Shown one piece after another: positions 1,131 through 60,536 of a stretch of DNA of 64,000 nucleotides; position 1 is the stretch's first letter; each line of letters begins with the position of its first letter. The notes beneath the pieces are model-generated. The model was not told the DNA's origin. It made no database searches and saw only the letters and a program-made list of their open reading frames with translations. A program made the translations under genes and the position numbers. The stretch covers positions 2,980-66,979 of the forward strand of contig CAJVYQ010000019.1 in NCBI GenBank assembly GCA_913009825.1. Reading direction: 5' to 3'. The stretch comes from an uncultured Deferribacteres bacterium. GTDB taxonomy: Bacteria; Zhuqueibacterota; JdFR-76; DREG01.

Positions 1131-3128
1131 ATGAAGAGAAGAGAAGTTCTCCGGTTATTGGGCAGTTCCGCTTTGCTGGCAACAGTACCCCCCTTTTTAA
1201 ATCCGAACCGCGTTTTTGCTGCGCAGAGAAGTGAGTCGGGCAACTTTTTCTTCTCACCGGCTGATATTCCCCGCATACAGGAAAACCGGAATACGGATTT
1301 GTTGGAAGACCACTTTCAAACGATGTTACGCGCGAATCTCAAAGAGGACAAGCAGTTCATCAAAAGAGCAGCCGGCACAAAAGATCTGGTGCGGGAATTT
1401 GCCCGCATGCAGGAAATCCTTCGCCGCGAAGCGTTGGTTTATCTTATCACCGGAGACAAAAAGCGGGGGGATTTTGCGCTGGATATCATGCGCACCATCA
1501 TAAAAATGCCCAAATGGGATTATTTTTTAACCGGCAATGAAACATTCGGTTTGCAGCGGGCGCCGGGCGCAGTGATCTATCTTCTTTTTACCCGGGAAGC
1601 GTTGGGCGATTTGATAGACCAAAAGCTGGGAAAAGAGCTGCTCGGTCAAATTGCGGAAAAAGGATGTCTGCCATGCTACCGCGCCCTGTGGGGAATGGAA
1701 CACAAAGAGACGGTAAAAAACTGGCATTTTGATCCGGAATACATGGCCAACTACGAAATTAACATGGAACGCTGGCCCGTCATTTTGGATGAAACAAATC
1801 TGAAAGCGATTCCGGTCACCGGTCTGGGACTTGGCGCTTTGGCGCTGGAAGGGATCGAACCGGAAGCAAAAGAGTGGTTGGATATGGCGGTTAACAGCGC
1901 CAAAGAATATTTGCAGCTATTTTCCCCGGACGGCAGTTATTTTGAGGGAATGGGCTACGCCGATTATTCGCTGCGGAATCTCATCCTTTTTATGGATGCG
2001 CATCAACGGATAAAAGGAGATGTGGATTGGTTCGATCTGGCCAATTTTTACGGTCTGTCCGAATATCTGGTTTGCATGCAACTGGGCAGAGACGGCAACA
2101 AACCGGATGTAGTTAATTTCAGTGATGCCAGGAGTACCGTCCATCCTATCACAGCGCTGTGGAGCGCCGACCGGGGGCACGATCCTCTGGCCCAATATGC
2201 GGCACAGCATTATTCCAGTCTTTTTGATTTCCACGATTACCTCTGGTACTATCCCGAACAGGAAGCGGTTCCGCCGTCTGTTTCGCTGAAAAACAAACGG
2301 TTCGATCTGGATATCATCGTCGCCAGAACCGGATGGGAGAAGAACGATTCTATGCTGGCATTCAAGAGCGGCACGCCGGCGAATCACGAACATGCCGACC
2401 GTAACAGCTTTATTTTTAAAACGTTCGACGAACGGTTGCTCACCGATCCGTTCGGAGCCGCTTACGACTGGCGCCAAAAAACATGGCTGCTGCGCCTGAC
2501 AGAGGCTCACAATGCCGTGCTGATCGATGGTAAGGGTCATCAATACAATGATGGCAGAGAAGGCACCAATGCTTCGCTGGCAGAGGCAAAAATTCTGCGT
2601 TACGTTGACCGCGGTGATTTTATCTGGTGGAACAGCGAAGCGACCCAGGCATATCATCTGGTCAATGAAGATGTGCGGTTTGTCATGCGTTCCGTTCTGT
2701 TTATAAAGCCGGATGTTATCCTCGTTTTCGACCAATTGGAAAAAGGGGACAAACCGTCCCGTTTTTCCGCTCGTTTTTTTCCGGATAACCGGGATGGAAA
2801 AGCAAAAATTCAGGTTCACAACAACCGATTCCGCATCGCCAGACCGAAGGCCAATCTGTTTGGCAAATCTTTGGCGAATGTGGCCGTTAAAGCGAAAAAA
2901 AGCAAACTCGATCTGCCTGAGAAGAATGGGGTTTTCCCGTTTGCCGAAATCATCGCCGCGCCGGGGAAACAGATTCAGATGGTCACCGTGCTGAAGGCGC
3001 AGCGAATCGAAGATTCCGGGCTGCCGGTCATCGACATCAAAAAAGGCGAAAAGGAGTGGGCGGTTACTGTCAATAAGTTGAACGTAACAATTGAAGTTTC
3101 CGGGAAATTGCCGGAGTTTTTAGGGTAA
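1131..3128 (+). CDS. Heparinase II/III-like (polysaccharide-lyase-like) protein with a twin-arginine-type signal peptide
   Basis: 665-aa ORF with AGGAG 8 nt upstream of the ATG. The N-terminus MKRREVLRLLGSSALLATVPPFLNPNRVFA looks like a signal peptide. The PANHEHADRNSFIF and AHNAVLIDGKGH blocks resemble the heparinase II/III C-terminal domain. Confidence 0.7.
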   Translation: MKRREVLRLLGSSALLATVPPFLNPNRVFAAQRSESGNFFFSPADIPRIQENRNTDLLEDHFQTMLRANLKEDKQFIKRAAGTKDLVREFARMQEILRREALVYLITGDKKRGDFALDIMRTIIKMPKWDYFLTGNETFGLQRAPGAVIYLLFTREALGDLIDQKLGKELLGQIAEKGCLPCYRALWGMEHKETVKNWHFDPEYMANYEINMERWPVILDETNLKAIPVTGLGLGALALEGIEPEAKEWLDMAVNSAKEYLQLFSPDGSYFEGMGYADYSLRNLILFMDAHQRIKGDVDWFDLANFYGLSEYLVCMQLGRDGNKPDVVNFSDARSTVHPITALWSADRGHDPLAQYAAQHYSSLFDFHDYLWYYPEQEAVPPSVSLKNKRFDLDIIVARTGWEKNDSMLAFKSGTPANHEHADRNSFIFKTFDERLLTDPFGAAYDWRQKTWLLRLTEAHNAVLIDGKGHQYNDGREGTNASLAEAKILRYVDRGDFIWWNSEATQAYHLVNEDVRFVMRSVLFIKPDVILVFDQLEKGDKPSRFSARFFPDNRDGKAKIQVHNNRFRIARPKANLFGKSLANVAVKAKKSKLDLPEKNGVFPFAEIIAAPGKQIQMVTVLKAQRIEDSGLPVIDIKKGEKEWAVTVNKLNVTIEVSGKLPEFLG

Positions 3129-3274
3129 CTGATCACAGAGGTAAGTCCGGTCAACCCCCTGTGTCTCTCTTCAATGGGAAAGTAAAAGTCCCCTCTTGAG
3201 AGGGAATTTAGGCCTGCCTGCGCAGGCAGGGGTGTGTTTCTCCGCGCTACCGGAGCAGTTACCTGAAATAGTTA
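3124..3274. mobile_element. MITE/REP-like intergenic element (family E: GGTAACT... terminus, CCCCTCTTGAGAGGG and CCTGCCTGCGCAGGCAGG hairpins, ...ACCTGAAATAGTTA terminus)
   Basis: The inverted termini GGTAACTGATCAC / ACCTGAAATAGTTA relate to the GTAACTATTCAGG motif seen at more than 10 other sites. The left terminus contains the TAA stop (3126-3128) of the upstream gene. The internal hairpin modules are shared with the elements at 23.4 and 60.4 kb. Confidence 0.6.
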
Positions 3275-3423
3275 AAAAAATTGATGGCGATTCAGCGAAT
3301 CGATCTACATGATTTTGGGTGGAACGAATACGGTTTTTTCGTCAAAATTCATCGTGGTTTCAGCGATAAAACACGCATTTTTTACACAGTGGCACATAGA
3401 CTCAAACAACAGAGGTCTTCTTT

Positions 3424-4653
3424 ATGCAACAACTTCGATTTGTTATTATCGGTATCGGCGGATATTCATTGGTTCATCTTGCAGCAATCGACTGGCTGCA
3501 GGAACAGGGGTTGGCGCAACTGACGGGTGTGGTTGCGCTGGAAAGCGAGAGAAAAACCAAACCGGAATTGATCCGATCTTTGCAGGATAAAGGGATACCT
3601 CTTTACGGAACCATCGACGATTTTTTTCAGAACGGAACAGATACCGCGGATGTTCTTACTGTCCCCATCGGGATTCATCAGCACGTGCCGGTCAGCATCC
3701 GGGCAATGCAGCACGGTTTGGATGTGTACTGCGAAAAACCTTTAGCCGCCACCGTGCAGGAAGCGGATGCGCTGATCGAAGTAAAAAATGAGACCGGCAG
3801 AAAAATTGCCGTCGGCTACCAGCATATTTACAGCAATTCCATGCAGCAATTAAAGCGGCTCATCCACGACGGGAAATTGGGCCGGGTTCAATCCATTTCG
3901 TTACTATGCGGCTGGCCGCGCAGCAAACAATACTACCGGCGCAACAATTGGGCTGGGAAATTAAAACTGAGCGAACACTGGATTCTGGACAGCCCCGCCA
4001 ACAATGCCCATGCTCATTATTTATTGAACACGCTCTATCTCGCTTCTCCCTTGCCGCAACAAGCCGCCAATCCGGCAGAGCTCCGGGCTGAATTGTACCG
4101 GGCCAATCATATCGAAAGTGCGGATCTGGCTCAGATTAAATTCAGAACCGATACCGGAGCTGATTGTTTCATCTCTTTTGCCCATTGCAACCAAACAGAA
4201 CTGGGGCCAAAGATGAGCCTGCAATGTGAGAAAGGAAAAGTTTATTGGCAAACCGATAACGGAAAGACCGAAATCAAATACACTAACGGTGAGACGGAAG
4301 AATTTGACAACCTCACGCATGAAAAATGGCGATTCGACGGTTTCAAAGATTTTGTAAGTGCCGTGCGGGAAAACAGGCAGCCTCTGTGTACGCCTGAATT
4401 GGCCAGAGCGCAAACCCAGGCCGTATCCGCCATGCACCGGAGCTGTCCGGAAATTGTAACCATCCCGGAGGGGCATATTATCGAAATCGAAGACTGGGAA
4501 ATGTTTCCCCCGGACACCAGAGGGGATTTTCGCCGGGTGAAAAATCTGGATGACTATTTAAAGAAATCGTTTACAGAAAATCTGTTTTTCAGTGAAATGG
4601 GACTATCCTGGGCAAAAGGGATCGATGCAAAATGGGTGCAGGCACGCGGTTAA
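3424..4653 (+). CDS. Gfo/Idh/MocA family NAD(P)-dependent oxidoreductase
   Basis: 409-aa ORF with an N-terminal Rossmann motif (RFVIIGIGGYSLVH) and the family-typical CEKPLA block. Confidence 0.75.
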   Translation: MQQLRFVIIGIGGYSLVHLAAIDWLQEQGLAQLTGVVALESERKTKPELIRSLQDKGIPLYGTIDDFFQNGTDTADVLTVPIGIHQHVPVSIRAMQHGLDVYCEKPLAATVQEADALIEVKNETGRKIAVGYQHIYSNSMQQLKRLIHDGKLGRVQSISLLCGWPRSKQYYRRNNWAGKLKLSEHWILDSPANNAHAHYLLNTLYLASPLPQQAANPAELRAELYRANHIESADLAQIKFRTDTGADCFISFAHCNQTELGPKMSLQCEKGKVYWQTDNGKTEIKYTNGETEEFDNLTHEKWRFDGFKDFVSAVRENRQPLCTPELARAQTQAVSAMHRSCPEIVTIPEGHIIEIEDWEMFPPDTRGDFRRVKNLDDYLKKSFTENLFFSEMGLSWAKGIDAKWVQARG

Positions 4654-4725
4654 TTTTCGTTTATTTTTGGCCACAGAAATGAGATGCTGCAGAATTGATT
4701 TTGAAGAGTGTCAGTCAAAAAGCAA

Positions 4726-4760
4726 ACCTTCCGGGTTTTAAAAACCCGGAAGGTTTTTTT
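4726..4760 (+). terminator. Rho-independent terminator
   Basis: Perfect 14-bp stem ACCTTCCGGGTTTT / AAAACCCGGAAGGT followed by a T7 run, 73 nt after the stop at 4653. Confidence 0.8.
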
Positions 4761-4774
4761 GCGGCCAAAATGTC

Positions 4775-4922
4775 GTAACCAATCACGGGGATGTTAGTAC
4801 ATAATGTCATTCAGGATGAATCCTTTCAGTTCTGTAGTACAAATCAACAAGATTCCTCCTGAATGACAAGATAATTACTCCGCTTCACTATTACGATAAT
4901 CAAAAGTCCCGTGATCGGTTAC
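4775..4922. mobile_element. MITE-like element with nested inverted repeats
   Basis: Outer inverted repeat GTAACCAATCACGGG / CCCGTGATCGGTTAC. Inner inverted repeat GTCATTCAGGATGAATC / GATTCCTCCTGAATGAC, whose CCTGAATGAC core recurs at 59.9 kb. Confidence 0.6.
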
Positions 4923-4944
4923 AAAATGCCCACACAACAAATCT

Positions 4945-6753
4945 TCATCTTATTCCCACGGTATTAAAATCCAGAATCATTTTTTCATCCTTGTAGGTCA
5001 TTTCCAATTCGCCGCTGCCGACTTCCGCATGCAAAAAAGGCCCTTTAAATAATTTATACGATTTAAAATCAAGCGGCCTGCCGTTTACCATTCGTTGGCC
5101 GCCGTAGGTGAATTGCAGGTTGTCTCCTGCTGAGGTGATGTATTTTACCGTCATTTTTGCATTAAAGTCCGTCATATCAATGAAATTCGCTTTGATCTGC
5201 TGCCGGAAGGCTGCAAAGGTGGGATAATCATCGGCGGAAGCGACTTCAACGATACAACCGTTTTTAAGATCTGTGCTGCGCAGGCGCCAGTCGATATCCT
5301 CTTCAATCCAGCGGTACCGCTTCAACGGAAAATAGGCGATGTAGGTTTTTCCGGCGCGACAGAATATCCAGCGTGATGCCGTGGAATTTTCGTTGAAAGG
5401 TTGGAAAATCCGCTCATCCAGGTCTTTCGGGAAAAAGCCGTCAATATGCTCAAATTGCGTGCCTCCGGGAATGTTGTACAGCGCGATGAGTATATTTTTA
5501 TGCTGGAACGTCTGTTCGTACGGAGAGCTGGACACCCATTTGTCTTCTTTGCCGTAATAGGTGTGAAAATGCGCCACTTCGGCCAGAGTAAATTTCATCT
5601 CTTCGGGAAAGAACATGCCCAGTTCGCGCTCGCCGATATAAGGATGCACGGTAAAAAGAGTACAATTTGGCTTATCCGAAACGAATGTTACATCCCAGGT
5701 ATGCTCCTGAATCGGCTGTAAAATGCCGCCCTGCATGGAGCCGAGACAGAAATATTTGGTCATATAATCGTATTTATAAACGGGCGGGTTGCGGTCTTTA
5801 CTAAAACGAATGATATTGCGCACTCTCTTCGTTTCAGTATGAATATAAGGCTTACTACGATCCGTGGCGATATGGTAAATAAGTTCCGGCATGTGATAAT
5901 CACTCAAAGCCGCCGCCAGAATTTCCGGCCGCATCACCGGTTCCGTCTGCCCGAACATGAGCCAGGCCCATCCGGTGCTGGGCGCATGTTTCGGTTCGAC
6001 AGCATCGAAGGGATAATCCCGGCTGTGTGCGCCGCAGTACATTCCTTGCAGATGTTCTGCAGCAAAATCGGCCAAAAGATAATGCACCATCATCTTTGCT
6101 TTTTTCTTCAAAACCGGGTCGGCTGCAAACTGCTGCAAAATCAGCATGGGCGCCAGGTAGACAATCATGTAGGTGGGCGAATCAAATTCTCCCTGCCCGA
6201 TTGTTGTTGTGGTTCTGATCCAGTCGTACAAAAAACCTTCCGCCTCGGTAAAATTTTCCGCCGAGCTTTTCCCGGTGTACCAATGATCACCGGAAAGCCC
6301 GTTCCAGGTCTGAGCCGCTAAATAGAGACCGGTGTAGTACATCACCCAGTGGTTTTCCGTGTCGCCGCGATACAGCGGCCGGATTGCAAAAGAGCGGCGG
6401 ATTTTTTCTGTCAACGCCGGTGGAATCATGTCACCGCCGTACAGATAGGCGGCCATCAATTCATAAATCACAAACATGCCGCGGCTGCTCGCCGAAGGAT
6501 CGTTCAATAAATTTTCAAGCATGCGCAGCGCCGCAGGAACATCCTGTCGCCGGTGTAATTTAGCGGCAACGTAGAAATAGTTTTCCGTCTTTGTGGAATC
6601 TGTAAACGCAAACAGATGGTTACAGCGCTGTTGATAATTTCCGCGGACGGAACCTGTTTGCGGCAAATTGCCCGCGCCGTACAGAACGGTGAGAGGATAC
6701 ATAGTTTCCATAATGACCACGAAAAGAAAAAGGCTCAGGCATATTTTATTCAT
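4945..6753 (-). CDS. Secreted hypothetical protein (helical N-half, beta-rich C-half, possibly a glycan-active enzyme)
   Basis: 602-aa ORF with a hydrophobic N-terminal signal-like segment (MNKICLSLFLFVVIM). I recognise no catalytic motif. It sits next to the heparinase-like and oxidoreductase genes. Confidence 0.45.
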   Translation of the reverse strand: MNKICLSLFLFVVIMETMYPLTVLYGAGNLPQTGSVRGNYQQRCNHLFAFTDSTKTENYFYVAAKLHRRQDVPAALRMLENLLNDPSASSRGMFVIYELMAAYLYGGDMIPPALTEKIRRSFAIRPLYRGDTENHWVMYYTGLYLAAQTWNGLSGDHWYTGKSSAENFTEAEGFLYDWIRTTTTIGQGEFDSPTYMIVYLAPMLILQQFAADPVLKKKAKMMVHYLLADFAAEHLQGMYCGAHSRDYPFDAVEPKHAPSTGWAWLMFGQTEPVMRPEILAAALSDYHMPELIYHIATDRSKPYIHTETKRVRNIIRFSKDRNPPVYKYDYMTKYFCLGSMQGGILQPIQEHTWDVTFVSDKPNCTLFTVHPYIGERELGMFFPEEMKFTLAEVAHFHTYYGKEDKWVSSSPYEQTFQHKNILIALYNIPGGTQFEHIDGFFPKDLDERIFQPFNENSTASRWIFCRAGKTYIAYFPLKRYRWIEEDIDWRLRSTDLKNGCIVEVASADDYPTFAAFRQQIKANFIDMTDFNAKMTVKYITSAGDNLQFTYGGQRMVNGRPLDFKSYKLFKGPFLHAEVGSGELEMTYKDEKMILDFNTVGIR

Positions 6754-6918
6754 GATTTAACTGCAACTCATCTGTGCTGATAACTAACAGAAATTACCCG
6801 TATGAAGATAAATCTCCAGATTTTAAAATGCTGCTGACCGGGATTATTATAAGTCTTATTGAAGCAAGCAATAATCTTTTAATACATGACATGTTAAGCA
6901 GCTGTAGAACAAGTTTCT

Positions 6919-7056
6919 AAACGCAGAGTTCGCAAAGGACGCAGAGAATGTCGTTTTAATAAAGCAAAATTGTCCAATTATTTCAAAGGACAAAAATGTT
7001 ACAAAATGATTAAGCTTCTCGCTGCACAACTCTGCGGCCTCGGCGAACTCTGCGTT
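6919..7056. repeat. Palindromic CTCTGCG-family element (family C)
   Basis: Perfect 14-bp inverted repeat AACGCAGAGTTCGC ... GCGAACTCTGCGTT with additional internal GACGCAGAG / CTCTGCGG arms. Related copies lie at 13.0-13.6 kb and 40.39 kb. Confidence 0.6.
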
Positions 7057-7098
7057 AATTTTTTATGAATAATCCGGACTAAACATTTTTACACATCA

Positions 7099-8136: not shown

Positions 8137-8203
8137 GATAGCATTTCGCTTCAGGCCGTATTTTGGAATGTGACCATCGGGGTTGTTCATTCAAAATGAA
8201 TAA

Positions 8204-8379
8204 GTAACTACCCAGGTATGCTTTGTGAATTAGCTGTAATCACGCTTCGACTCCCTGCTCGCAGCAGGCAGGCGCTAAGCATAGCTATTTAAGCCGGTCT
8301 GAGCCCTTCGTCAAGCTCAGGATAAACCCGGTCGAAGGTTTTTCTACACATTAAAAAATAAGCATACCTGAGTAGTTAT
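8204..8379. mobile_element. MITE-like element, family B
   Basis: Terminal inverted repeat GTAACTACCCAGGTATGCTT / AAGCATACCTGAGTAGTTAT. The internal blocks TAATCACGCTTCGACT, AGCATAGCTATTTAAGCCGGTCTGA and GTCGAAGG are shared with the copy at 44571-44725. Confidence 0.75.
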
Positions 8380-8458
8380 ATAAATAAAATAAATCTGTCC
8401 GGGGTTTTTACAGGATGATTTTCAAAGCGTATTTTAAAATCATCCCTCCGGGCAGAAA

Positions 8459-9614: not shown

Positions 9615-9835
9615 GCAACTATTCAGGTATGTGCTGAAAATATTGAGTAAAATTTAATTTATGGCAAAAAGATAAGGAAAAACGTTGAAATTAGAAATTG
9701 AAAATTAGAGATTAGGATTATCATACTTTCTATTCATTTGATTCATCAATTTCTAATTTCAAGTTTCAGCTTAATATTTGCAGCGTAGAACACATACAAA
9801 TGAAACTTTTGTATCCTTACGACTGCATAGTAACT
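9615..9835. repeat. AT-rich intergenic element with a GCAACTATTCAGGTATG terminus and an internal 17-bp perfect inverted repeat
   Basis: The left end carries the shared terminus motif. TTGAAATTAGAAATTGA (9685-9701) and its exact reverse complement (9746-9762) are separated by 44 bp. The right end (GCATAGTAACT) is degenerate. Confidence 0.45.
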
Positions 9836-9905
9836 AAATTAGATTGTTTCGTTACTGCCAAATGCAGGTGAAATAATTTTTTGATTTCAAATTGCGTAAA
9901 CGACC

Positions 9906-13007: not shown

Positions 13008-13076
13008 GTTTTCCTGTTCGTTATTCGGTTTTGAAAGTTCAAATTTCTCTGCGTTAAAAAAGGGCAGAGAAATGCA

Positions 13077-13114
13077 GAAGCTGACCTTTTTTGAAAAGGT
13101 CAGCTTCTTTTTTT
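13077..13114 (+). terminator. Rho-independent terminator of the C69 peptidase gene (repeated at about 13279 and about 13613)
   Basis: GAAGCTGACCTTTT / AAAAGGTCAGCTTC stem followed by a T7 run. Confidence 0.8.
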
Positions 13115-13375
13115 ACCACCTGAGGGCGCTTTAGCGTCCTTCCTGTTTTTAGCCCCGTGGTTCACCGCGGGACTTCCCAGTTCGTTATTCGGTTTTGAAA
13201 GTTCAAATTTCTCTGCGTCCTCTGCGTTAAAAAAGGGGTGAATAAAAACGCAGAGACGCGGAGACCGCAGAGAAATGCAGAAGCTGACCTTTTTTGAAAA
13301 GGTCAGCTTCTTTTTTTACCACCTGAGGGCGCTTCAGCGTCCTTCCTGTTTTTAGCCCCGTGGTTCACCGCGGCG

Positions 13376-13506
13376 CTTTTGAGAAAAAGGCGCTGGCAGC
13401 CTACAAAAAGAACCGTAAAAAAGCCAGACAGATGCTGACCGAATATACAACAAAATATGCATTGGAAGCATTGTCATTGGTGAAAAACAGAAATGAGAAC
13501 CGTTAG
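13376..13506 (+). pseudogene. Orphan diverged copy of the last 131 nt of the C69 peptidase gene (compare 12877-13007)
   Basis: Collinear alignment with about a dozen substitutions and the same TAG stop. No upstream coding sequence is present. Confidence 0.85.
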
Positions 13507-13911
13507 ACTTCCCAGTTCGTTATTCGGTTTTGAAAGTTCAAATTTCTCTGCGTCCTCTGCGTTAAAAAAGGGGTGAATAAAAACGCAGAGACGCGGAGAC
13601 CGCAGAGAAAGTAGAAGCTGACCTTTTTTGAAAAGGTCAGCTTCTTTTTTTACCACCTGAGGGCGCTTTAGCGTCCTTCCTGTTCTTAGCCCCGTGGTTC
13701 ACCGCGGGGCGGGCCCGGCGCCTTTGTTCTTTCGCGGCAAAAGAAATTCTCAGAAAAAAAATATTTTTTTGATGTAAGAACAAGGATTAACGATTTCAGA
13801 ATTTCGAAGGCATGAAAATAACTGACATATTCTTATAATAATACTACATTTCCATTCTAAGGCAAAAACAAAACAATCATAATTACAAAGAGGCAACGGC
13901 CTTCTCTATAA

Positions 13912-16769: not shown

Positions 16770-18092
16770 TTGAAATTAATCGATTCTCCCGAGAGCAAAG
16801 TAGTCGATCCCGGGCTTGACGAAACCATTAAAAAACTGACGCCCGAAAAGATAAAGCGGGTAGTCGATCACGTTCTGACCAAAGAAAACGCCGGGCGTTT
16901 GCAAATGTACATCGATACCTGCGTGCATTGCGGGCTGTGTGCAGAAGCTTGTCATACTTACCTGTCACGGGATAAAGATCCGAATTTCTCGCCGGTTGCC
17001 AAAGTGAAAAATACACTGTGGGAATTGGTTAAACAGAAAGGGGATGTCAGTCCGGAATTTATCCGGCAGGCGGCCAGAATCGCTTTCACCGAATGCGGTG
17101 CCTGCCGCAGGTGCAGCATGTACTGTCCGTTTGGAATCGACATCGCTTACCTGATCATGATTGTGCGGCGGATTTGCAGTCTGTTGGGTGTGGTGCCGCA
17201 ATATTTGCAGGACACTACCAACAGTCACGCCGCCACCTCCAACCAGATGTGGGTGCACCAGGATGAATGGATCGACACGCTGCAATGGCAGGAAGAGGAA
17301 GCGGGTTTTGAAATTCCCGGCGTACGTATCCCTCTGGAAAAAGAGGGCGCCGATGTGATGTATTCGGTGATTGCGCCGGAGCCAAAAATTCTGGCCCAAT
17401 TGTTAGGCAATATGGCCATGATTATGAAAGTAGCCGGAATCGACTGGACCATGCCGGCGACAGACGGCTGGGACAACAGCAATATGGCCATGTACTCCGG
17501 TGACTTCGAGATCATGGGACGTGTGGAACGGCTGCACTGGGAAACCGCCGCCCGATTGAAAGTAAAAAAAATCGTCATGGGCGAATGCGGTCACGCTTTT
17601 CGCGGCGCGGTGTACGACGGCCCCAAATGGCTGGGCTGGAAATTCCCGCCCATTCCCATGGTTCACGCCATTGAGTTTTACTACGATCTGATCAAAAGCG
17701 GTAGAATTAAAATCAAAGAAAAATATAAAGAACCGGTTACCATTCAGGACCCCTGTAATACGGTGCGCGGCCGCGGTTTGGGTGATAAATTGAGATATGT
17801 GGTGAATGAATTGTGTGAAGATTTCACCGATGTGAGTCCAAATCAGGAACATAATTACTGTTGCATGGCTGGCGGCGGTACCATCAATTGCGGCCCGCCG
17901 TGGAAAAAATCCCGTATGATCAGCAACCGGGTGAAAGCGGAACAGTTGGCTGCTACCGGCGCAAAAATAGTGATTACTCCCTGTCACAATTGTCACAGCG
18001 GCATCGAAGATATCATCGGTTATTACAATTTGGGCATGCACGTGAAATTTATCAACGAAATTTTGGTGGAAACCATGGAACGACCGGAATAA
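16770..18092 (+). CDS. HdrD-like iron-sulfur protein with two CCG domains (HmcF / TmcB / DsrK-like)
   Basis: TTG start 5 nt after GGAGG. Two ferredoxin motifs are present (CVHCGLCAEAC and CGACRRCSMYCP), plus CCG-type cysteine blocks (DPCNTVRG, YCCMAGGG, TPCHNCHSG). Confidence 0.8.
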   Translation: MKLIDSPESKVVDPGLDETIKKLTPEKIKRVVDHVLTKENAGRLQMYIDTCVHCGLCAEACHTYLSRDKDPNFSPVAKVKNTLWELVKQKGDVSPEFIRQAARIAFTECGACRRCSMYCPFGIDIAYLIMIVRRICSLLGVVPQYLQDTTNSHAATSNQMWVHQDEWIDTLQWQEEEAGFEIPGVRIPLEKEGADVMYSVIAPEPKILAQLLGNMAMIMKVAGIDWTMPATDGWDNSNMAMYSGDFEIMGRVERLHWETAARLKVKKIVMGECGHAFRGAVYDGPKWLGWKFPPIPMVHAIEFYYDLIKSGRIKIKEKYKEPVTIQDPCNTVRGRGLGDKLRYVVNELCEDFTDVSPNQEHNYCCMAGGGTINCGPPWKKSRMISNRVKAEQLAATGAKIVITPCHNCHSGIEDIIGYYNLGMHVKFINEILVETMERPE

Positions 18093-23385: not shown

Positions 23386-23510
23386 TAACCGGCGGTTATT
23401 AACACCCTCGGTACTCCCCTCAAGGGGGATTTTTAGATTCCCCTCTTGAGAGGGGCACGGGAAGTGTAAAATAACTTTTGCCACAATTATATCTTGCCCT
23501 GAATAGTTAC
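23386..23510. mobile_element. MITE/REP-like element, family E (reverse orientation relative to 60401-60536)
   Basis: Contains CCCCTCAAGGGGG and CCCCTCTTGAGAGGGG hairpins and ends with CCCTGAATAGTTAC. Its reverse complement aligns with the element at 60.4 kb. The left boundary is approximate. Confidence 0.55.
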
Positions 23511-25769: not shown

Positions 25770-25890
25770 ATCTTTGAGTTGAATGATCCTCTTGTTTTTG
25801 AACTTGTTGCTATTAGCAGCTCTGTTATTATTTTTCAGCGTAAAACCTGCCGGCGATTCGGCAAATCGTGCTACAATCGCTCAATTCAGG
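25770..25890 (-). mobile_element. MITE family A, copy 1 (reverse orientation; left end degenerate)
   Basis: ...CTCTTGTTTTTGAACTTGTTGC...GGCGATTCGGCAAATCGTGCTACAATCGCTCAATTCAGG aligns with the reverse complement of the copies at 35.2 and 60.55 kb. Confidence 0.7.
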
Positions 25891-28155: not shown

Positions 28156-28272
28156 CCTGATTTGAGCGATTCTTTTGTTTTTAAGTTTGTGACCGTTACT
28201 GAACGGGTTTATACTTTTAATGTGAATTCTGTTGGCGATTCCGCGAATCGCTCTACAATCGCTCAATTCAGG
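28156..28272 (-). mobile_element. MITE family A, copy 2 (reverse orientation)
   Basis: CCTGATTTGAGCGATTC...GGCGATTCCGCGAATCGCTCTACAATCGCTCAATTCAGG, flanked on both sides by TTTGT (possible target duplication). Confidence 0.8.
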
Positions 28273-28325
28273 TTTGTATTGTATCCTGAATAGTTACAGT
28301 TTTCCATATATTTTAGATCAAAAAC

Positions 28326-29678: not shown

Positions 29679-29757
29679 GTAACTATTTAGGGAAGTACGG
29701 GGGGTGTAAAACAACTTCCAATATTATTATTACTATACATCCCGGGGTGTTAAATGG
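29679..29757. repeat. Family E-like element fragment (GTAACTATTTAGGG terminus)
   Basis: Starts 7 nt after the stop at 29672. GTACGGGGGGTGTAAAACAACTTCC resembles CACGGGAAGTGTAAAATAACTTTT in the 23.4-kb copy. Confidence 0.4.
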
Positions 29758-34895: not shown

Positions 34896-35174
34896 GATTT
34901 TTGTAAAACCTCTTTTAGAATTAAGAATCTACATTTTGTAAAAAAGCAACTTCTCATTAAAAATATTAAATCACTAATAATTTATCGGAAGGAGTGCAAA
35001 AAAGATAAACCATTTTATGGTGGTAATTTATTCTTCAACGCAAACGTCACGGCTCATTTGACAAAAAGAGTATTCGCTCAGTTTTTTTAAATTTAAAAAC
35101 AGTACTACTTGTAAACTTTAGTTTTTTGGAACGATAACTTGGTGTTGTGCCAAAAAATCAAAATGTTACAAAAT

Positions 35175-35291
35175 CCTGAATTGAGCGATTGTAGAGCGAT
35201 TCGCCGAATCGCCAACAGGATTTATACCCAAAGATGAAAATTCGTTTGTAAACGCAACAAGTTCAAAAACATAAAAATTGTTCAATTCAGA
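35175..35291 (+). mobile_element. MITE family A, copy 3 (forward)
   Basis: CCTGAATTGAGCGATTGTAGAGCGATTCGCCGAATCGCCAACAGGATTTATAC...AACAAGTTCAAAAAC...TTCAATTCAG. Confidence 0.8.
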
Positions 35292-40188: not shown

Positions 40189-40369
40189 GAATCATACGGA
40201 AATGATAGAAAAACGGGGTCTTTGGTCAGGAACCAAATAGTTGCCAATCATTTTCTGTTCCATCTTTGCAATGATTTAAGTCGCCCGCTAATAACGCTAA
40301 AAAGCGTGAATACTTAACTGTTTCATCCCATTCGTATGATTCGTGTAATTCGCGGGCTGAATAGTTACC
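40189..40369. mobile_element. MITE-like element with GAATCATACG / CGTATGATTC inverted repeat, ending in CTGAATAGTTACC
   Basis: 10-bp perfect inverted repeat at 40189-40198 and 40333-40342. The shared terminus motif lies at 40357-40369. Confidence 0.5.
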
Positions 40370-40385
40370 CAATTTTTTTCAATTT

Positions 40386-40448
40386 CTCTGTGTCCTCTGC
40401 GCCTCTGCGTTAAAAAACAGGGGCTCTAAAACGCAGAGACGCAGAGAG
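40386..40448. repeat. CTCTGCG-family palindrome (family C)
   Basis: CTCTGTGTCCTCTGCGCCTCTGCGTTAAAAAACAGGGGCTCTAAAACGCAGAGACGCAGAGAG. It has the same architecture and the same flanking TTCAATTTCT as the 13-kb copies. Confidence 0.65.
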
Positions 40449-40593
40449 CGCAAAGGGCGCGGATTTCAGTAAAAACTAAAGAGTTACGTATTCTTTACAA
40501 AACAGGCCATAACAATTTGAGAAATGTTATTTTCCCAATAGCTATTTCATCCCGGCCAATACTCTCAAAAAAAACCAGATTTTTGATCCTATC

Positions 40594-42137: not shown

Positions 42138-42220
42138 CCTAAATTGAGCGATTGTAGGGCGATTCGCTGAATCGCCAACGGGAGTTGCACAAAAAAATGA
42201 AAACCCGTTTGGTAATAGAA
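42138..42220 (+). mobile_element. MITE family A, copy 4 (forward, right third missing)
   Basis: CCTAAATTGAGCGATTGTAGGGCGATTCGCTGAATCGCCAACGGGAGTTGCAC...AAAATGAAAACCCGTTTGGTAAT. There is no right terminal repeat, and the copy abuts the GH29 remnant. Confidence 0.7.
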
Positions 42221-42222
42221 CC

Positions 42223-42375
42223 GAGTACGAAAAATATGCCGCGCAGTTCAATCCGGTGAAATTCAACGCGGATGAATGAGTGAAAATCGCCAAAGATGCC
42301 GGCATGAAATATATCGTGATCACCTCCAAACATCACGATGGCTTCTGTATGTGGGACTCCAGAGTTTCCGATTGA
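42223..42375 (+). pseudogene. Remnant (about 50 codons) of a GH29 alpha-L-fucosidase gene with an internal TGA
   Basis: Translates to [49 protein letters not shown]. The F.A..F.A.EW..L.K.AG.KY.V.T.KHHDGF..W.S block is the hallmark GH29 N-terminal region, and the TGA sits where the conserved Trp (TGG) is expected. About 100 N-terminal and more than 300 C-terminal codons are missing. Confidence 0.7.
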
Positions 42376-44570: not shown

Positions 44571-44725
44571 GTAACTATTCAGGTTTACACAATGAATTGG
44601 CTATAATCACGCTTCGACTTCGCTCAGCATAGCTATTTAAGCCGGTCTGATCCCTTCGGCAAGGTTTGTCCTGAGCTTGTCGAAGGCTCCCTGCACATCA
44701 AACAATAAACATACCTGAGTAGTTA
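44571..44725. mobile_element. MITE-like element, family B, second copy
   Basis: GTAACTATTCAGGT ... ACATACCTGAGTAGTTA termini, with internal blocks shared with 8204-8379. Confidence 0.75.
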
Positions 44726-44753
44726 AAAGAAGAGACGGAAGATTATACCGGAA

Positions 44754-46046
44754 TTGAAAAAAGAATTGACGCAATACGGACTCATCATGGTGGCCATCGG
44801 CTCCTGTATCGGTTCGGGAATTTTTCTTACCCCTTCACAAATTGCCGGACAATTGCCGTCTCCCCTGCTAATTCTCACTATTTGGGGGATTGGCGGGGTT
44901 ATCACACTAACCGGCGCACTCACTTTTGCCGAGTTAGGCGCCATGTTTCCACAGGCCGGGGGAGTTTACGTTTATCTGAAAGAAGCGTATGGCGACCTGG
45001 CCGGATTTTTGTACGGCTGGTCTTACCTGATGGTTATTTCAACGGGAGCTATTGCGGCGCTTAGCATCGCATTTGCCCGCTACATGGCCTTTATCATCCC
45101 TCTTTCTGCAAACGGAATCAAGATTGTGGCGAGCGCGGCAATTGTTGCGGTTACCATTGTAAATATTTTACGTGTGAAAGCGGGAGAAGTGTTTTCCAAT
45201 CTTTTTACCGGACTGAAAATTATCGGAATTTCAGCTATTATTTTAATCGGATTGATTTGGGGCAACGCCGCTTTCATTGCTAATACATCCACCTCACAGA
45301 CGCTGCCCGGCAACCTAATCAGCGCCCTGGGATTGGGATTGATCGGCGTTTTGTGGTCTTATGGCGGATGGCAGCACGCTTCGTACGTTGCCGGAGAGGC
45401 TAAGGATGCCCAACGAACCGTGCCGCGCGCCATGATCATCGGCGCGCTGATTGTCGCCGCCATCTATTTATTGACCAATCTTGCCTACCTTTTCCTTTTA
45501 CCTGTCGACGAAATAATTCAATCCAAAAGTCTGGCGGCAGATGCGGTGAAAACCATCATTCCATTCGGCGGCGTTGCCGTGGCGCTGATCATTGCTCTTT
45601 CCACTTTCGGCACTGCCGGAATCTACACCCTTTCCTCTCCCAGAATTTACTATGCCATGGCCGCAGATAAACTCTTTTTCCGCCAGTTAGCCGCCATACA
45701 TCCCAAATTCAGAACGCCCATGAACGCCATTTTGGCGCAATCTTCCTGGGCGATTGTGCTGCTGCTGTTTTGGGGAACTTTTGAAGATGTGATCACTTAC
45801 GTGGTTTTCAGCGATTGGATTTTTTTCAATTTAACCGCCGTTTCCATTTTCATTTTTCGCCGGAAACGAAAAGATGTTCACAGACCGTATAAAACCTGGG
45901 GTTACCCCGTTACACCCATTATTTTCATCGTCATTACATTTCTATTTGTGGTGAACACCTTAATCGAAAAGCCGCTGCATGCCTGGGCCGGATTGATTTT
46001 TATGGGTATCGGTACTGTTGTTTACCTGTTTTTTAAAAAAAGGTAA
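44754..46046 (+). CDS. APC superfamily amino-acid permease
   Basis: 430 aa with 12 helices. The N-terminal GLIMVAIGSCIGSGIF block is typical of APC transporters. The start is TTG. The stop TAA (46044-46046) lies inside a GGTAACTATTCAGG terminus. Confidence 0.8.
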   Translation: MKKELTQYGLIMVAIGSCIGSGIFLTPSQIAGQLPSPLLILTIWGIGGVITLTGALTFAELGAMFPQAGGVYVYLKEAYGDLAGFLYGWSYLMVISTGAIAALSIAFARYMAFIIPLSANGIKIVASAAIVAVTIVNILRVKAGEVFSNLFTGLKIIGISAIILIGLIWGNAAFIANTSTSQTLPGNLISALGLGLIGVLWSYGGWQHASYVAGEAKDAQRTVPRAMIIGALIVAAIYLLTNLAYLFLLPVDEIIQSKSLAADAVKTIIPFGGVAVALIIALSTFGTAGIYTLSSPRIYYAMAADKLFFRQLAAIHPKFRTPMNAILAQSSWAIVLLLFWGTFEDVITYVVFSDWIFFNLTAVSIFIFRRKRKDVHRPYKTWGYPVTPIIFIVITFLFVVNTLIEKPLHAWAGLIFMGIGTVVYLFFKKR

Positions 46047-46110
46047 CTATTCAGGCAGGATATAATTGTGTTGGAACTACTCTTATGCGCCCCAGTACTC
46101 CCCATGTTGT
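46042..46110. repeat. Family E-like element fragment (GGTAACTATTCAGGCAGGATATAATTGTGTTGG...)
   Basis: The left half aligns with the reverse complement of the 23.4-kb copy (GTAACTATTCAGGGCAAGATATAATTGTGGC). No right terminus was found. Confidence 0.45.
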
Positions 46111-46165
46111 TGACTTAATGAGTGTTTTCTTTGGATTTTTTATTGTTTTCCATACTGTTCTTTGT

Positions 46166-46634
46166 GTTTAACCATTTACAACGCTCGCCTGATGGTGAAC
46201 CATCAGGCTAATGTCGGCAAGCGCCATAAATGACGCTCGGAAGACCGGAGAAGTGTCAGTTTCAGGCGGACTTTGAGGGGTGTACCGGGAGTGTTCTCTC
46301 TCCAACGAACAAGCTACCGGGAAACCTAAAAATCGGTTCACAGAATTGAGGTTTCACAGAAAAAAAATGAATAATTTTGTTGATTTAATATGTTTTAAAA
46401 GTTTAACCATTTACAACGCTCGCCTGATGGTGAACCATCAGGCGAATGTCGGCAAGCGCCATAAATGACGCTCGGAAGACCGGAGAAGTGTCAGTTTCAG
46501 GCGGACTTTGAGGGGTGTACCGGGAGTGTTCTCTCTCCAACCGAACAGCTACCGGGAAACCTAAAAATCGGTTCACAGAATTGAGGTTTCACAGAAAAAA
46601 ATGAATAATTTTGTTGATTTAATATGTTTTAAAA
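46166..46634. repeat. Tandem duplication, 2 x about 235 bp (46166-46400 and 46401-46634), near-identical
   Basis: The copies differ only at GGCTAATG/GGCGAATG, CCAACGAACAAGC/CCAACCGAACAGC and A8/A7. Each unit holds the hairpin CGCCTGATGG-TGAA-CCATCAGGCG. A partial match to the unit end (TTGTTGACTTAATGAGTGTTTT) precedes copy 1. Confidence 0.85.
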
Positions 46635-46867
46635 ATTGCCTCGAATGAATTTATGCCAATATTGCATGTTTTGAAAATGATCAATACATGAATGAAAATA
46701 CAAAAAAAGTTGAACCATCCACAAATGCCAACGGTAATAAAGAACATTACAACCACGAAAGAGATAAAGGCAAATCCGGGAAATCTTGTTGAACTTTGTC
46801 TGTTTCAGGCCGGGTTATCAAATACAAATTTTCTATCATTTGGACAAATCAATGAAAGGGAGTTAAA

Positions 46868-54746: not shown

Positions 54747-54790
54747 ATCAGGAAAAATCCTGTGTTTTTTTGGGGGCGGATGAAACCGAA

Positions 54791-54822
54791 TATAAAAACC
54801 CCACCGGTGACCCGGTGGGGTT
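54791..54822 (-). terminator. Rho-independent terminator after the SusD-like gene
   Basis: On the minus strand: AACCCCACCGG-GTCA-CCGGTGGGGTT followed by TTTTT. Confidence 0.75.
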
Positions 54823-54896
54823 GCGAAGGTATTCACGCAGCAGACATCAAACACCTTTCCATTCAGATTTACATGAAACCGGATGCACATCCCACG

Positions 54897-56300: not shown

Positions 56301-56317
56301 TTTTCACCTCCTGATTA

Positions 56318-59300
56318 TTAGTAATTCACACGAAAAGTTAACAGAAATGATCTGATCTGCGGTTGATTAAAATAATCGCTGTCACGCTCATCAGACGCCT
56401 GACGGCGGTTGGTTTCAGGATCCAGACCGGTGTAATCTGTCCATGTATAAATATTATTAGCACTCAACCGCACACTGGCGCCGCTTAAACCGAATCGTCT
56501 CATGTATTTCGCCGGTATTTTATATGCGACGGAAATTTCCCGCAGTTTGATGTAACTGGCGTCTTCCGTGAATAAAAAACCGTCGCCGGAAAATCCCAAT
56601 GGACCGCGGTACCAGCTTTCCGTCCATTCCACCGCCTTACCGGCGCCGGGGCCAATGGCTTTCTCTCCATGCTTCAGGAAACTGTAATTTTCTCCGGTTG
56701 TAGTTGTGCCGCCGGAGATGGGGGCAACGGTACCGCGATATCTTGTATCTGCATGGGTGCCGTAGCTAAAAAGCGCCATCTTCGTATGATTCATGATTTC
56801 AAAACCCTGTTTAAAATCCAGAAGGCCTGCAATAGAGATGTTTTTGAATAATTTAAATTCGGTGCGAATACTTCCGGTCCAATCCGGATTCGGACTGAAG
56901 TCGGACCAGATTCTGTCCTCATTCATCACCGGGTAGCCATCTTCAGCAATATAGACATCGTACTTTTTCCACTGACCGGCGTATTTTTTATCGATATTCA
57001 CCATCTGGCCATTCTCTTCCGTTGTCATCCCAAAACCAAACCGTTTCCAGGTGGCCAGCCTCAACTCGCCAAGCTCATGTCCCGGCGCAGCATACGCCCA
57101 ACGGCCAACCTGTTCCCAATTGGCGCCGGACATATCCAGAACTTTGTTTTTGTTTCTTGCATAGATAAACGTAAGGTTCCAGGTGAAATCCCTGAGTTTC
57201 ACCGGCACCAGGTCCAAATTCAATTCAAAACCATGATTTTCGATGGATGCAGCATTAGCGGTCTGGTCGAAAGAACCGGTAGAGGGAGCCACATTAATAT
57301 CGAACAAAACATCGGTGGATTTGGCTTTGTAATAGGTAAGTTCCAAACCGATGCGGGAGTTCCAGAAAGACAGATCGGAACCGATTTCTATTTCCTTGGT
57401 TCTTTCCGGTTTCACATTATCATTGCCTAATCTGGTACTTGCCCGGTAACCATTGATGCCGTTATACGTCAAATTCAGGTTTGCGCCCCAACCGTCGCCG
57501 GACGTTCCGGCATTATAACCGGTTACCGTGTTATAAACGCCGGGTTGGACGCCCGCTTCGCCATAGGCAAAACGGAGTTTACCAAAACTAACGTAAGGAA
57601 TTTTCTTGAACTTGGTAAATTCCCAGGCCGCGCTGGCTTTGGGATACCAATGTTGTTTTTGACTTTTGCCAAATGTGGAAGAACCTTCGTTCCGCAACGC
57701 GCCGGTAAAATACAATTGATCGAACAGGTCGAGTGTCGCCTGGGCAAAAATGGCATTGGTATGAATGAGATAGCGATATTCATTGGTTGTTAAGTTGGTC
57801 GATACGGTATTATCCAACTGATTCCAGCCGGGGATACCCATGTCGACTCCTGTAGCTTGTAATCGGCGATAGTCCCGGCTATTCAAATTGTGCCCCAGCA
57901 TTAAGGTGGCATCGATGTTTTTATATTTGCCGAGAAATTTTCGCCCTTCCAATGACAGAATCAAATTGCTGTCCCATTCCAGAAAACCGAAGTTTGCCCG
58001 GCGAATCCGGCCGACACCATTTTCCCTGGAATCACCGATAGGATCAACATTCAAACGATCATCCAGTGAGTAATCCGTGCCGAAAGTGTAGGAGAGATTG
58101 ATCCAATCCTGCACATCATAATCCAGTTTCATATTCCCATACACCCGGTTCATATCCGCCGGATTAACATGTTCATGCATGATGAAAAACGGATTATCAA
58201 ATTTTCGGGACTTGCGCAATTCCTTGGCCTCGGAATAACGGTAAGAACGATGAAACCCGGTTACCGGATCGATGTAAGGCAGGTTGTTAAATTCCGGCGG
58301 GGTTCTGGTTGTAGCCAGCATAATTCCTACCGCGTTATCGCCGCGCTCCAGATAATGTGCGTTCGTATTGGCGTAAGCGATATTTCCGGTAATTTTCAGC
58401 TTATCGGTAACGGCCTGCGAAGCTTTTACCCGGGCCGTATAACGGGTATAATCGGAACCGGCGACCCAGTGTCCTTGTTCGAAATAACGGCCAAACGAAG
58501 CAAAAAAAGTAGTTTTGTCGTTGCCGCCGGAGATGGTAACATTGTTCTCATTACTGTAGCCGCCATTGGTCACTTCTCTGGGATGATCATAAATGGTATC
58601 TCCCGGTTTGCCGGCATCATAAAACGGAGAGCCCGGCACATTTAAAGGCCGTCCCCAACTCCTGGAGTAATCTTTCTTGAAGGCTCCTTTTGTTCCCTGG
58701 CCAAACCAGGTTTGCACCGGGTAAAATTTTGTCATTTCCGTACTGCCGATAGAAGATTTAAAATTGATCTTCACTCTGCCTGCTTTACCGCTTTTGGTGG
58801 TAATCATAATCACGCCATTGGACGCCCGTGATCCGTAAATCGCAGCGGCAGAAGCGCCTTTCAGAATTTCGATGGACGCGATATCTTCCACATTCAGATC
58901 CGAAGCCCGGTTCTGCGCCTCCATACCGCCATTGTAGCCCCGGATATAGTTGGTCTGATTATTGATCGGCACACCATCCACAACGAACAGCGGTTGATTG
59001 CCGCGATCGATACTTGCCGGCCCGCGGATACGGATATAGGTGTTCGTGCCGGCATCGCCGCTGGTTTTAGTGATTTCCACATTGGCCACTTTGCCCGACA
59101 GAGCAGAAACAATGTTCGGCTGATCGGCATTCTCGACCAATTCCGGTGCCACTTTGGCGATGGCAACACCCAATTTTTCCTTCATCTGTGTTGCACCCAC
59201 ACCTGTAACCACAACCGATTCCAGTTTAAGCACATCCACTTCCAATTTAAAATTGTGGGTAATGGTGCCGGGACTGAGCGTTATGGCAGCTTTCTGCGAC

Positions 59301-59572
59301 CGGTAACCGATGAATCGCGCCACCAAATTCACCTGCTGATTTTTTACCACACCGGAGGGTACCACAAAGCTGTATTCACCCTCTGTATTTGAAGCGGCGC
59401 CGTACTTCATCCCCTCGATGATCACATTTGCGCCGGGTAACGGATTGCCTACATCGTCCGTAACGACACCGACAATATTTGCGCCCCCTTGCCCAAAAAC
59501 ACTCTGGCTGAATACAAACGCAGGTGTTAATATCGATGCGCAAATAAGAAATGTGGAAAGTAGTTTTTTCAT
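56318..59572 (-). CDS. SusC/RagA family TonB-dependent outer-membrane transporter
   Basis: 1084 aa with a CarboxypepD_reg-like N-domain (VVTDDVGNPLPGANVII), a plug (IEILKGASAAAIYGSRASNGVIMITTK) and a C-terminal LLTFRVNY barrel end. GGAAGGAG is the RBS. Confidence 0.9.
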   Translation of the reverse strand: MKKLLSTFLICASILTPAFVFSQSVFGQGGANIVGVVTDDVGNPLPGANVIIEGMKYGAASNTEGEYSFVVPSGVVKNQQVNLVARFIGYRSQKAAITLSPGTITHNFKLEVDVLKLESVVVTGVGATQMKEKLGVAIAKVAPELVENADQPNIVSALSGKVANVEITKTSGDAGTNTYIRIRGPASIDRGNQPLFVVDGVPINNQTNYIRGYNGGMEAQNRASDLNVEDIASIEILKGASAAAIYGSRASNGVIMITTKSGKAGRVKINFKSSIGSTEMTKFYPVQTWFGQGTKGAFKKDYSRSWGRPLNVPGSPFYDAGKPGDTIYDHPREVTNGGYSNENNVTISGGNDKTTFFASFGRYFEQGHWVAGSDYTRYTARVKASQAVTDKLKITGNIAYANTNAHYLERGDNAVGIMLATTRTPPEFNNLPYIDPVTGFHRSYRYSEAKELRKSRKFDNPFFIMHEHVNPADMNRVYGNMKLDYDVQDWINLSYTFGTDYSLDDRLNVDPIGDSRENGVGRIRRANFGFLEWDSNLILSLEGRKFLGKYKNIDATLMLGHNLNSRDYRRLQATGVDMGIPGWNQLDNTVSTNLTTNEYRYLIHTNAIFAQATLDLFDQLYFTGALRNEGSSTFGKSQKQHWYPKASAAWEFTKFKKIPYVSFGKLRFAYGEAGVQPGVYNTVTGYNAGTSGDGWGANLNLTYNGINGYRASTRLGNDNVKPERTKEIEIGSDLSFWNSRIGLELTYYKAKSTDVLFDINVAPSTGSFDQTANAASIENHGFELNLDLVPVKLRDFTWNLTFIYARNKNKVLDMSGANWEQVGRWAYAAPGHELGELRLATWKRFGFGMTTEENGQMVNIDKKYAGQWKKYDVYIAEDGYPVMNEDRIWSDFSPNPDWTGSIRTEFKLFKNISIAGLLDFKQGFEIMNHTKMALFSYGTHADTRYRGTVAPISGGTTTTGENYSFLKHGEKAIGPGAGKAVEWTESWYRGPLGFSGDGFLFTEDASYIKLREISVAYKIPAKYMRRFGLSGASVRLSANNIYTWTDYTGLDPETNRRQASDERDSDYFNQPQIRSFLLTFRVNY

Positions 59573-59621
59573 CTCATTCTCCTTCCTGTTACTTTCAATT
59601 TCCGGTTAAAATGAAATTAGC

Positions 59622-59719
59622 GTAACTATCCAGTCCACGAAATACCGGCGACAGGTATGAAATAATCAAAAGATTTTAATTATTTTTTTCGTGTCTTTCG
59701 TGGCTTCCCAAGTAGCTAC
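59622..59719. repeat. Short palindromic element with GTAACTATCCAG / CCCAAGTAGCTAC termini
   Basis: Degenerate shared termini plus the internal CCACGAAA...TTTCGTGG inverted repeat. Confidence 0.45.
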
Positions 59720-59901
59720 AAATGAATAAAAAAGTGGCTCTTTCCCTCACCTCCTTTCATTTTTTTGGCTAACACGGAATAAGCTGAAACATTTTTCCTC
59801 TACTACCTCCTTTCGGACAGATTTTCCCGGTTCAACAATAATTATAATTTTGAAATGGATATTCTTGCATCTGTTTGTTTTCAAAACCCATCTTTTACAT
59901 A

Positions 59902-59999
59902 AACTGAGCGATCCTTCTGTCATTCAGCCTGCCCGCAGCAGGCGGGGAGGAATCTTTTTGAGTATAAGCACTAAAATATCAAGATCCCTACCGAATGAC
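59902..59999. repeat. Mosaic palindromic element (AACTGAGCGATCC, GTCATTCAG...CGAATGAC, CCTGCCCGCAGCAGGCGGGG)
   Basis: It combines a family-A-like terminus fragment, the CCTGAATGAC-type inverted repeat seen at 4.8 kb, and the CCTGC..GCAGCAGGC hairpin seen at 3.2 and 8.25 kb. Confidence 0.45.
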
Positions 60000-60400
60000 A
60001 TTTCACTCATCAGGTGATAGTCTGAAGTTCAGAATCACTTGATTAAAGTTTTACCTAAATCGAACCGCAAAAAAAGAGAAAAAAGTGACGGCACTAACGC
60101 TAAAAAATGCTCTCTCCCTGGAGGTTAAATATTCGAAAAATTAGTAAGTACTCAAAAACATCAAATAGTCCGGATAAAATCCTGTAAATTTTTACAAAGC
60201 AGCTGTGGCAAATTCAGTTGTGGTTCCGGTTCTTACGTTGAAAGCTAATTAATATTTTTAAACAGGTTTTCACTAAGTGTAAGTCTACGATGTTCTTTAA
60301 TCATAGTTTCACACATTTTTCTTAAATTTAATATTTATGACAATATTGTCAAGTATTTTTTTTATTTTATAGAAAGAAAATTATTTTACAATACTTGTTT

Positions 60401-60536
60401 GTAACTATTCAGGATCAAAATGATTATGTTGGCAGTTGTTTTACATCCTCCGTGCCCCCTCAAAGAGGGTCTATTATAATCCCCCTTCTGAAGGGTACGG
60501 AAGGTGTGTATTCATTTTACCTGAATCATGACTACC
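60401..60536. mobile_element. MITE/REP-like element, family E
   Basis: GTAACTATTCAGGATC ... ACCTGAATCATGACTACC termini, with CCCCCTCAAAGAGGG and CCCCCTTCTGAAGGG hairpins. It aligns with the reverse complement of 23386-23510. Confidence 0.65.

Follow-up and report, generated by a model that had tools for sequence, protein, structure and literature searches.

Intergenic miniature elements in a Deferribacteres bacterium genome carry the ends of IS66-family (ISBst12-group) transposons

The window analyzed here, a stretch of 64,000 nucleotides from an uncultured Deferribacteres bacterium (positions 2980-66979 of contig C19 in a draft genome of 5.1 Mb, 123 contigs, and 43.5% G+C), contains many variants of a 13-14-nt motif that bounds small palindromic elements lying between genes. 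The motif very probably represents the ends of a superfamily of miniature inverted-repeat transposable elements (MITEs) moved in trans by an IS66-family DDE transposase of the single-gene ISBst12 group. The elements have the repeat structure of such transposons, with duplications at their target sites, a bias toward spacers, ends identical to those of IS66 elements elsewhere, and, in one gene, replacement of the stop codon by an element end; that an IS66-type transposase acted in this genome is what we infer.

The motif is both real and abundant. In the window, nine matches to the 14-mer were found at up to two mismatches compared with 0.09 expected from shuffled sequences, and genome-wide the 13-nt core, GTAACTATTCAGG, occurs in 221 exact copies versus about 0.15 expected, rising to 555 copies at up to one mismatch and 982 at up to two. 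A random spread that included coding regions, against which the earlier sequence-only reading of this window had set its proposal of a shared motif, is not what we found, because 15 of the 555 copies (2.7%) lie inside ATG-initiated open reading frames (ORFs) of at least 150 aa, and such ORFs make up 77% of the genome. Most of the 15 positions listed by that reading are right at zero to two mismatches. The core or its complement is present with zero or one mismatch at 9615, 23497, 28279, 29679, 40357, 44571, 46042, and 60401, and, with two mismatches counted for the listed pairs 8204/8366 and 44571/44712, ten listed positions carry the core overall; position 59622 has the motif with two mismatches. 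At 60519 there are three mismatches, and the sites at 3124 and 3261 are degenerate, with a different GTAAC-type end. One match absent from the list, at 17736, is inside an ORF and looks like a chance occurrence. A literature search with the motif string found no paper, and the window gave no match to Rfam.

Ends, interiors, and target sites of the elements

The elements are bounded by a terminal inverted repeat of 13-14 bp, GTAACTA(T/C)TCAG(G/C). Alignment of the 555 copies reveals a sharp boundary at the G of GTAAC, outside of which the sequences are unrelated and AT-rich, and inward of the motif they fall into a handful of unrelated classes. There are 296 adjacent inverted motif pairs, spaced mostly 80-200 bp apart, and about 240 bounded elements of 60-500 bp with at least six unrelated interior families; BLAST comparison of 242 bounded elements yielded 49 clusters, the largest with 67, 61, 29, 15, 13, and 8 members. 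The elements are non-coding, and their sizes are mostly 80-200 bp, extending to about 480 bp. The proposal of one recognition sequence with variable cargo is supported, the motif being a terminal inverted repeat around unrelated interiors. The GTAACTACTCAGG variant of the end occurs 53 times in the genome. The mosaic character and exchange of modules suggested earlier are also apparent, because a 19-nt CCCTGCTCGCAGCAGGCAGG GC hairpin module distinguishes the copies at 8204 and 44571, which are members of the same family, and other "families" are composites in which a small element lies beside or inside another repeat. Such mosaic interiors would have arisen by insertion of one element beside or inside another, by internal deletions, and by gain or loss of hairpin modules.

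Of 237 elements, 56 are flanked by perfect 8-bp target-site duplications and 94 by duplications with at most one mismatch, whereas the next 8 nt outward, taken as a control, gave no perfect duplication and one with one mismatch; almost no duplications of other lengths were seen. A and T make up 80% of the duplicated sites, with A prevailing in the left half and T in the right. A 160-bp family is represented by 30 full copies with 98.1-100% identity, which points to a recent burst, and about 64 of the 246 contig ends of the assembly stop inside these elements. Together these data bear on the alternative that selection maintains the motif as a regulatory or terminator signal of the host, and that it is not a transposon end. 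The strongly intergenic location of the copies, often just past stop codons, is in keeping with such a signal, as is the capacity of the ends to pair, forming a 13-bp stem in the folded 44571 copy, albeit with a z-score of only -1.9. On the other hand, a host signal does not account for the target duplications, the near identity of the 30 copies in one family, the contig breaks inside elements, or the presence of the same ends around unrelated interiors in unrelated phyla, and it gains nothing from the window, where Rfam has no matches; we consider this explanation extremely improbable.

The ends also carry stop codons. From either side, one inward reading frame of the end is xxG TAA, and the opposite strand contains TAG/TGA; because of the inward TAA, an element that inserts near the 3' terminus of a coding sequence, within its last codons, can provide it with a new stop. 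The amino-acid permease gene at 44754-46046 (PF13520) provides an example, its TAA stop (46044-46046) lying inside an element end. The encoded protein terminates in ...FFKKR, with the element supplying the TAA and the third position of the preceding Arg codon, whereas the ortholog from a genome of the same family (63% identical) terminates in ...FFKKKQVKSG, so that about five codons have been replaced here. Insertion at gene ends, with an element-derived stop at this position, had been suggested from the window, and the comparison with the ortholog agrees on both counts. The same suggestion for the heparinase-like gene at 1131-3128 fared less well. Its product ends ...PEFLG, the stop at 3126-3128 lies inside GGTAACTG, and four orthologs are 2-3 residues longer, as expected of an insertion, but the element, whose end is of the second GTAAC type, is degenerate; from these sequence comparisons, it is plausible that the element supplied the stop. 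Genome-wide, 15 ORFs of at least 100 aa end on the TAA of the terminal inverted repeat.

The mobilizing enzyme

The sequence-only reading had envisaged a single kind of mobilizing enzyme encoded elsewhere, and the occurrence of the same ends on IS66-family DDE elements in other genomes agrees with this. Locus L217, from a gammaproteobacterial metagenome-assembled genome (MAG), contains a complete element of 2,267 bp whose GTAACTATTCAGGGG ends are perfect and which has the 8-bp duplication ATTATCTG on both sides. The 475-aa protein that it encodes matches PF03050 at 1e-47 and reaches 298 bits against the IS66-family model NF033517, for which the cut-off is 180. Upstream of the transposase gene lies a passenger ORF of 231 aa (L217:2151-2846) that is weakly similar to Dam methyltransferases and, because it is the sole other ORF, L217 corresponds to the single-gene (ISBst12-type) form. 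Loci L232 and L283 harbor 1.5-kb IS66 elements with GTAACTACTCAGG ends, L232 with a single 388-aa ORF, and the partner transposase, as seen in L217 and L232, is an IS66-family DDE enzyme without the canonical IS66 tnpA/tnpB genes. These three full elements were obtained as relatives of a transposase fragment from an Anaerolineales MAG, in which two IS66-family transposase gene fragments at contig starts run into ...GGCTGAATAGTTAC and then into unrelated DNA, the TAG stop of the gene lying inside the element end. At L205 and L207, the end of the IS66 transposase gene falls within GCTGAATAGTTAC, beyond which the flanks are unrelated. Near-identical ends (GTGACTACTCAGCA and GTAACTGCTCAGCA) have been described for ISDge4 from Deinococcus geothermalis, a member of the ISBst12 group of the IS66 family, which also has an 8-bp direct repeat and encodes a single transposase of 449 aa (PMC12898284). 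An odd end that occurs 67 times in our genome, GTCACTACTCAGG, parallels the left end of ISDge4. In other phyla, MITEs with unrelated interiors have these same ends and are flanked by 8-bp duplications, and motif copies at up to one mismatch number 356 in an Anaerolineae MAG (3.3 Mb), 187 in a Desulfobacteria MAG, 132 in a Calditrichaceae MAG, 104 in the Anaerolineales MAG, and 50 in a Chloroflexus MAG. By reference to the family, the transposase would bind both ends and make cuts with an 8-bp stagger when it integrates the element, which would give rise to the 8-bp duplications. The A+T-rich target sites largely restrict insertions to intergenic DNA and the final codons of genes.

The 8-bp duplications indicate a DDE transposase and rule out the REP/RAYT mechanism that had been suggested for the window, in which REP/REPIN-like elements are spread by a RAYT (Y1, IS200/IS605-type) transposase. 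The genome does contain nine Y1-transposase matches, and the elements lie between genes and have many hairpins; however, the motif is not itself palindromic, no motif copy at up to two mismatches occurs in the 3.3-kb loci around the four best Y1 genes (1.5 kb on each side), and identical ends flank IS66 DDE elements. Y1 transposases are not known to make regular target-site duplications of this kind, and we give this mechanism almost no credence.

A third alternative is that the MITEs are moved by another resident DDE family that generates 8-bp duplications (IS256, ISL3/ISKra4, IS1595, IS6, or IS1). Two resident genes speak for it, namely an ISKra4-like element and an IS1/IS256-like gene on contig C58, but neither shows a connection with the motif. 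The ISKra4-like insertion sequence, of about 1.4 kb, is split over two contigs (C20 at about 76810-78021, joined via a 127-nt overlap to C109:1-345), matches NF033572 at E=4e-30, below the curated cut-off, and has ends of its own, TATAAGGGGTGTGTTTTT. The C58 gene is single-copy and without inverted repeats, and its relatives occupy a fixed place beside sulfate-reduction genes. IS1595 was not found in the genome, and the copies of IS701, IS4, IS1182, and IS1634 are not flanked by the motif. Three sets of candidate mobilizers were rejected accordingly, the weak ISL3 match being the ISKra4-like element with its different ends, the weak IS256 match the C58 gene, and the PF01609 matches the IS701, IS4, IS1182, and IS1634 copies. 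A resident enzyme of this sort is, in our view, very unlikely. The C58 gene (C58:4898-6004; L148:1501-2604) encodes a 368-aa transposase-like protein whose zinc ribbon is of the IS1/IS1595 type and whose match to Mutator/IS256 DDE is weak. A search of related loci found no close relatives of the protein; its 13 database relatives (36-94% identity) are encoded beside sat-aprBA, qmo-like, or dsrAB-like genes in metagenome contigs, and the protein resembles a domesticated transposase linked to loci for sulfate reduction.

Several results weigh against mobilization by an IS66-family enzyme. No IS66 transposase was detected in this assembly by PF03050, tblastn with three IS66 proteins against this genome returned nothing below E=1, and none was found in the three same-family genomes searched. 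Among 40 relatives, IS66 is present only in genomes that are devoid of the motif, and four of the five MITE-rich genomes from other phyla also gave no PF03050 match. What ties the MITEs to the transposase is thus their shared ends and not their occurrence together. MITE families usually, though not necessarily, have an autonomous partner with the same ends in the same genome. The assembly contains no contigs shorter than 2.7 kb, and 134 of its 246 contig ends have no overlapping partner; a multi-copy autonomous element of 1.5-2.3 kb could have remained unassembled or, alternatively, the IS66-type element could have been lost or could reside on an unsampled replicon. The lack of PF03050 in four of the five MITE-rich MAGs fits the assembly explanation, although it is no proof of it. 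It is also conceivable, although unlikely, that the recent 160-bp burst occurred in a genome truly without an IS66 transposase, in which case the enzyme would be transient (borne by a plasmid or phage) or an unrecognized resident, and the stop codons in the ends would be a selected feature allowing harmless landing in the last codons of genes.

Other candidates for a full-length or autonomous element were discarded. A 1,441-bp candidate on contig C43 with identical 8-bp flanks proved to be an ordinary Cys-rich gene between separate MITEs, and the motif matches in relatives G035 and G011 were all MITEs or chance matches in coding sequence. A scan of contigs with GTAACTATTCAGGC returned 120 loci, many of them MITEs, and no full-length element; the recurrent neighboring ORFs were conserved housekeeping genes with a chance 14-mer. 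Calditrichaceae repeats at contig starts gave only MITEs. A 1.8-kb multi-copy insertion sequence in a Methylococcales MAG (L056:3645-5448, L090, and L103), with a DDE-like ORF of about 496 aa, has the ends TTAACTCGTCAGTCACGAGTT and contains GTAACTATTCAGG by chance 35 nt inside its left end.

Copies in the window and neighboring repeats

Two MITEs of one interior family are complete in the window. The first (8204..8379; 176 bp) has the ends GTAACTACCCAGG and CCTGAGTAGTTAT, flanks ATGAATAA and ATAAATAA that match at 7 of 8 positions, an extra CCTGC..GCAGG hairpin module, and up to 79 related copies genome-wide; the second (44571..44726; 156 bp) has the ends GTAACTATTCAGG and CCTGAGTAGTTAA and flanks AAGAAAAG and AAGAAGAG, which also match at 7 of 8 positions. 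A CCCC..GGGG hairpin family is represented by a 132-bp MITE at 60401..60532, with an exact left end, a degenerate right end (CCTGAATCATGAC), and no remaining duplication; by a copy at 23401..23510 on the minus strand that lacks its left end and has an exact right end, CCTGAATAGTTAC (23498-23510); by a short remnant at 29679..29750 on the plus strand, consisting of the end GTAACTATTTAGG (one mismatch) and part of the interior; and by the left part of a copy at 46043..46105 on the plus strand, which has an exact end and is interrupted by another inserted element. In this last region (46100-46650), the MITE is broken at its CCCC hairpin by a sequence beginning ATGTTGTTGACTTAA, followed by two tandem units of about 235 bp. 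The ATGTTGTTGACTTAA terminus is present at other loci too (on C63, C32, and C20), and the sequence may be a further mobile element, one for which the MITE hairpin serves as the target.

The remaining copies with the core motif are less complete. A lone exact end, CCTGAATAGTTAC, lies at 28285..28297 on the minus strand; a MITE of about 100 bp from the GCCCGCTAATA family (40268..40368) has the right end GCTGAATAGTTAC and a degenerate left end and adjoins a GCAGAG-heptamer repeat; a worn copy of about 94 bp from the CACGAA family (59622..59715) has the left end GTAACTATCCAGT with two mismatches; and a candidate worn element at 9615..9834 has a left end, GCAACTATTCAGG, with one mismatch, a possible right end with three, and an interior unrepeated elsewhere. 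The second GTAAC-type end (GTAACCRATCACGGG) occurs about 69 times genome-wide at up to two mismatches. It bounds a 148-bp MITE at 4775..4922, with the ends GTAACCAATCACGGGG and CCCGTGATCGGTTAC, flanks AAAATGTC and AAAATGCC that match at 7 of 8 positions, and a GTCATTCAGG / CCTGAATGAC module, and it resembles the left end, GTAACTGATCACAG, of the degenerate element at 3125..3274. This class may use a different ISBst12-like transposase lineage.

Family A, by contrast, shares the core only superficially. The CCTGAAT sequence is outermost in the Family A repeat, CCTGAATTGAGCGATT, whereas it forms the inner part of the superfamily repeat, and from the arrangement of its ends Family A is a distinct MITE type outside this superfamily. 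Its copies in the window (25770-25890, 28156-28272, 35174-35290, 42139-42237, and 60575-60675) end in CCTGAATTGAGCGATT, the second of them adjoining the lone end at 28285, and up to about 170 related copies exist genome-wide. A separate repeat family consists of GCAGAG/CTCTGCG heptamer arrays around a hairpin (6841-7073, 13047-13714, and 40369-40470), of which CGCAGAGACGC occurs 131 times genome-wide; analogous CACAGAG arrays are found within GTAAC-ended MITEs of the Calditrichaceae MAG. The genome also contains seven genes or relics for the 23S-rRNA-intervening-sequence protein (PF05635; C30:276-590, C3:65991-66311, C45:435-752, C26:22907-23233, and three weaker sites), none flanked by a GTAACTATTCAGG end and at least one flanked by heptamer arrays of the CAGTGAT/CAGTAAT type.

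Relation to known systems and significance

Members of the ISBst12 group such as ISDge4 and ISBst12 resemble the elements described here in having ends that begin with GTAAC and share the core ACT(A/G)(T/C)TCAG and in making an 8-bp direct repeat, and the partners at L217, L232, and L283 have a single DDE gene whose stop lies inside the right end. Unlike them, the elements in this genome are 60-500 bp long, non-coding, and diverse in their interiors, and their autonomous partner is missing from the assembly. Classical bacterial MITEs, such as Correia, RUP, Nezha, and Chunjie (reviewed in PMC3184786), are likewise small, non-coding elements with terminal inverted repeats and target duplications that lie in AT-rich spacers, sometimes become fused to the ends of genes, and need a transposase provided in trans, but they differ in end sequence and duplication length. 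A Lyngbya locus (L213) with CCTGAGTAGTTAC ends offers a lead, and only that, that cyanobacterial Nezha/ISNpu3 may belong to the same IS66-type set. REP/REPIN sequences with RAYT share the abundance, the intergenic location, and the hairpin potential; however, REPs are short palindromes recognized by a Y1 enzyme without target duplication, whereas the elements here have 8-bp duplications and DDE-type ends.

The superfamily is therefore real, abundant, and recently active, and its members are ordinary selfish DNA of a known kind; no new mechanism is indicated. In this genome, the elements are responsible for roughly one in four contig breaks (about 64 of the 246 contig ends), cause spurious extensions of ORFs, and have reshaped the C termini of about 15 genes. 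Beyond it, MITE copies with this 13-nt end number in the hundreds in lineages that include Anaerolineae, Calditrichaceae, Desulfobacteria, and Chloroflexus, and because of these numbers across lineages, the ISBst12 group emerges as a major, little-described source of bacterial MITEs.

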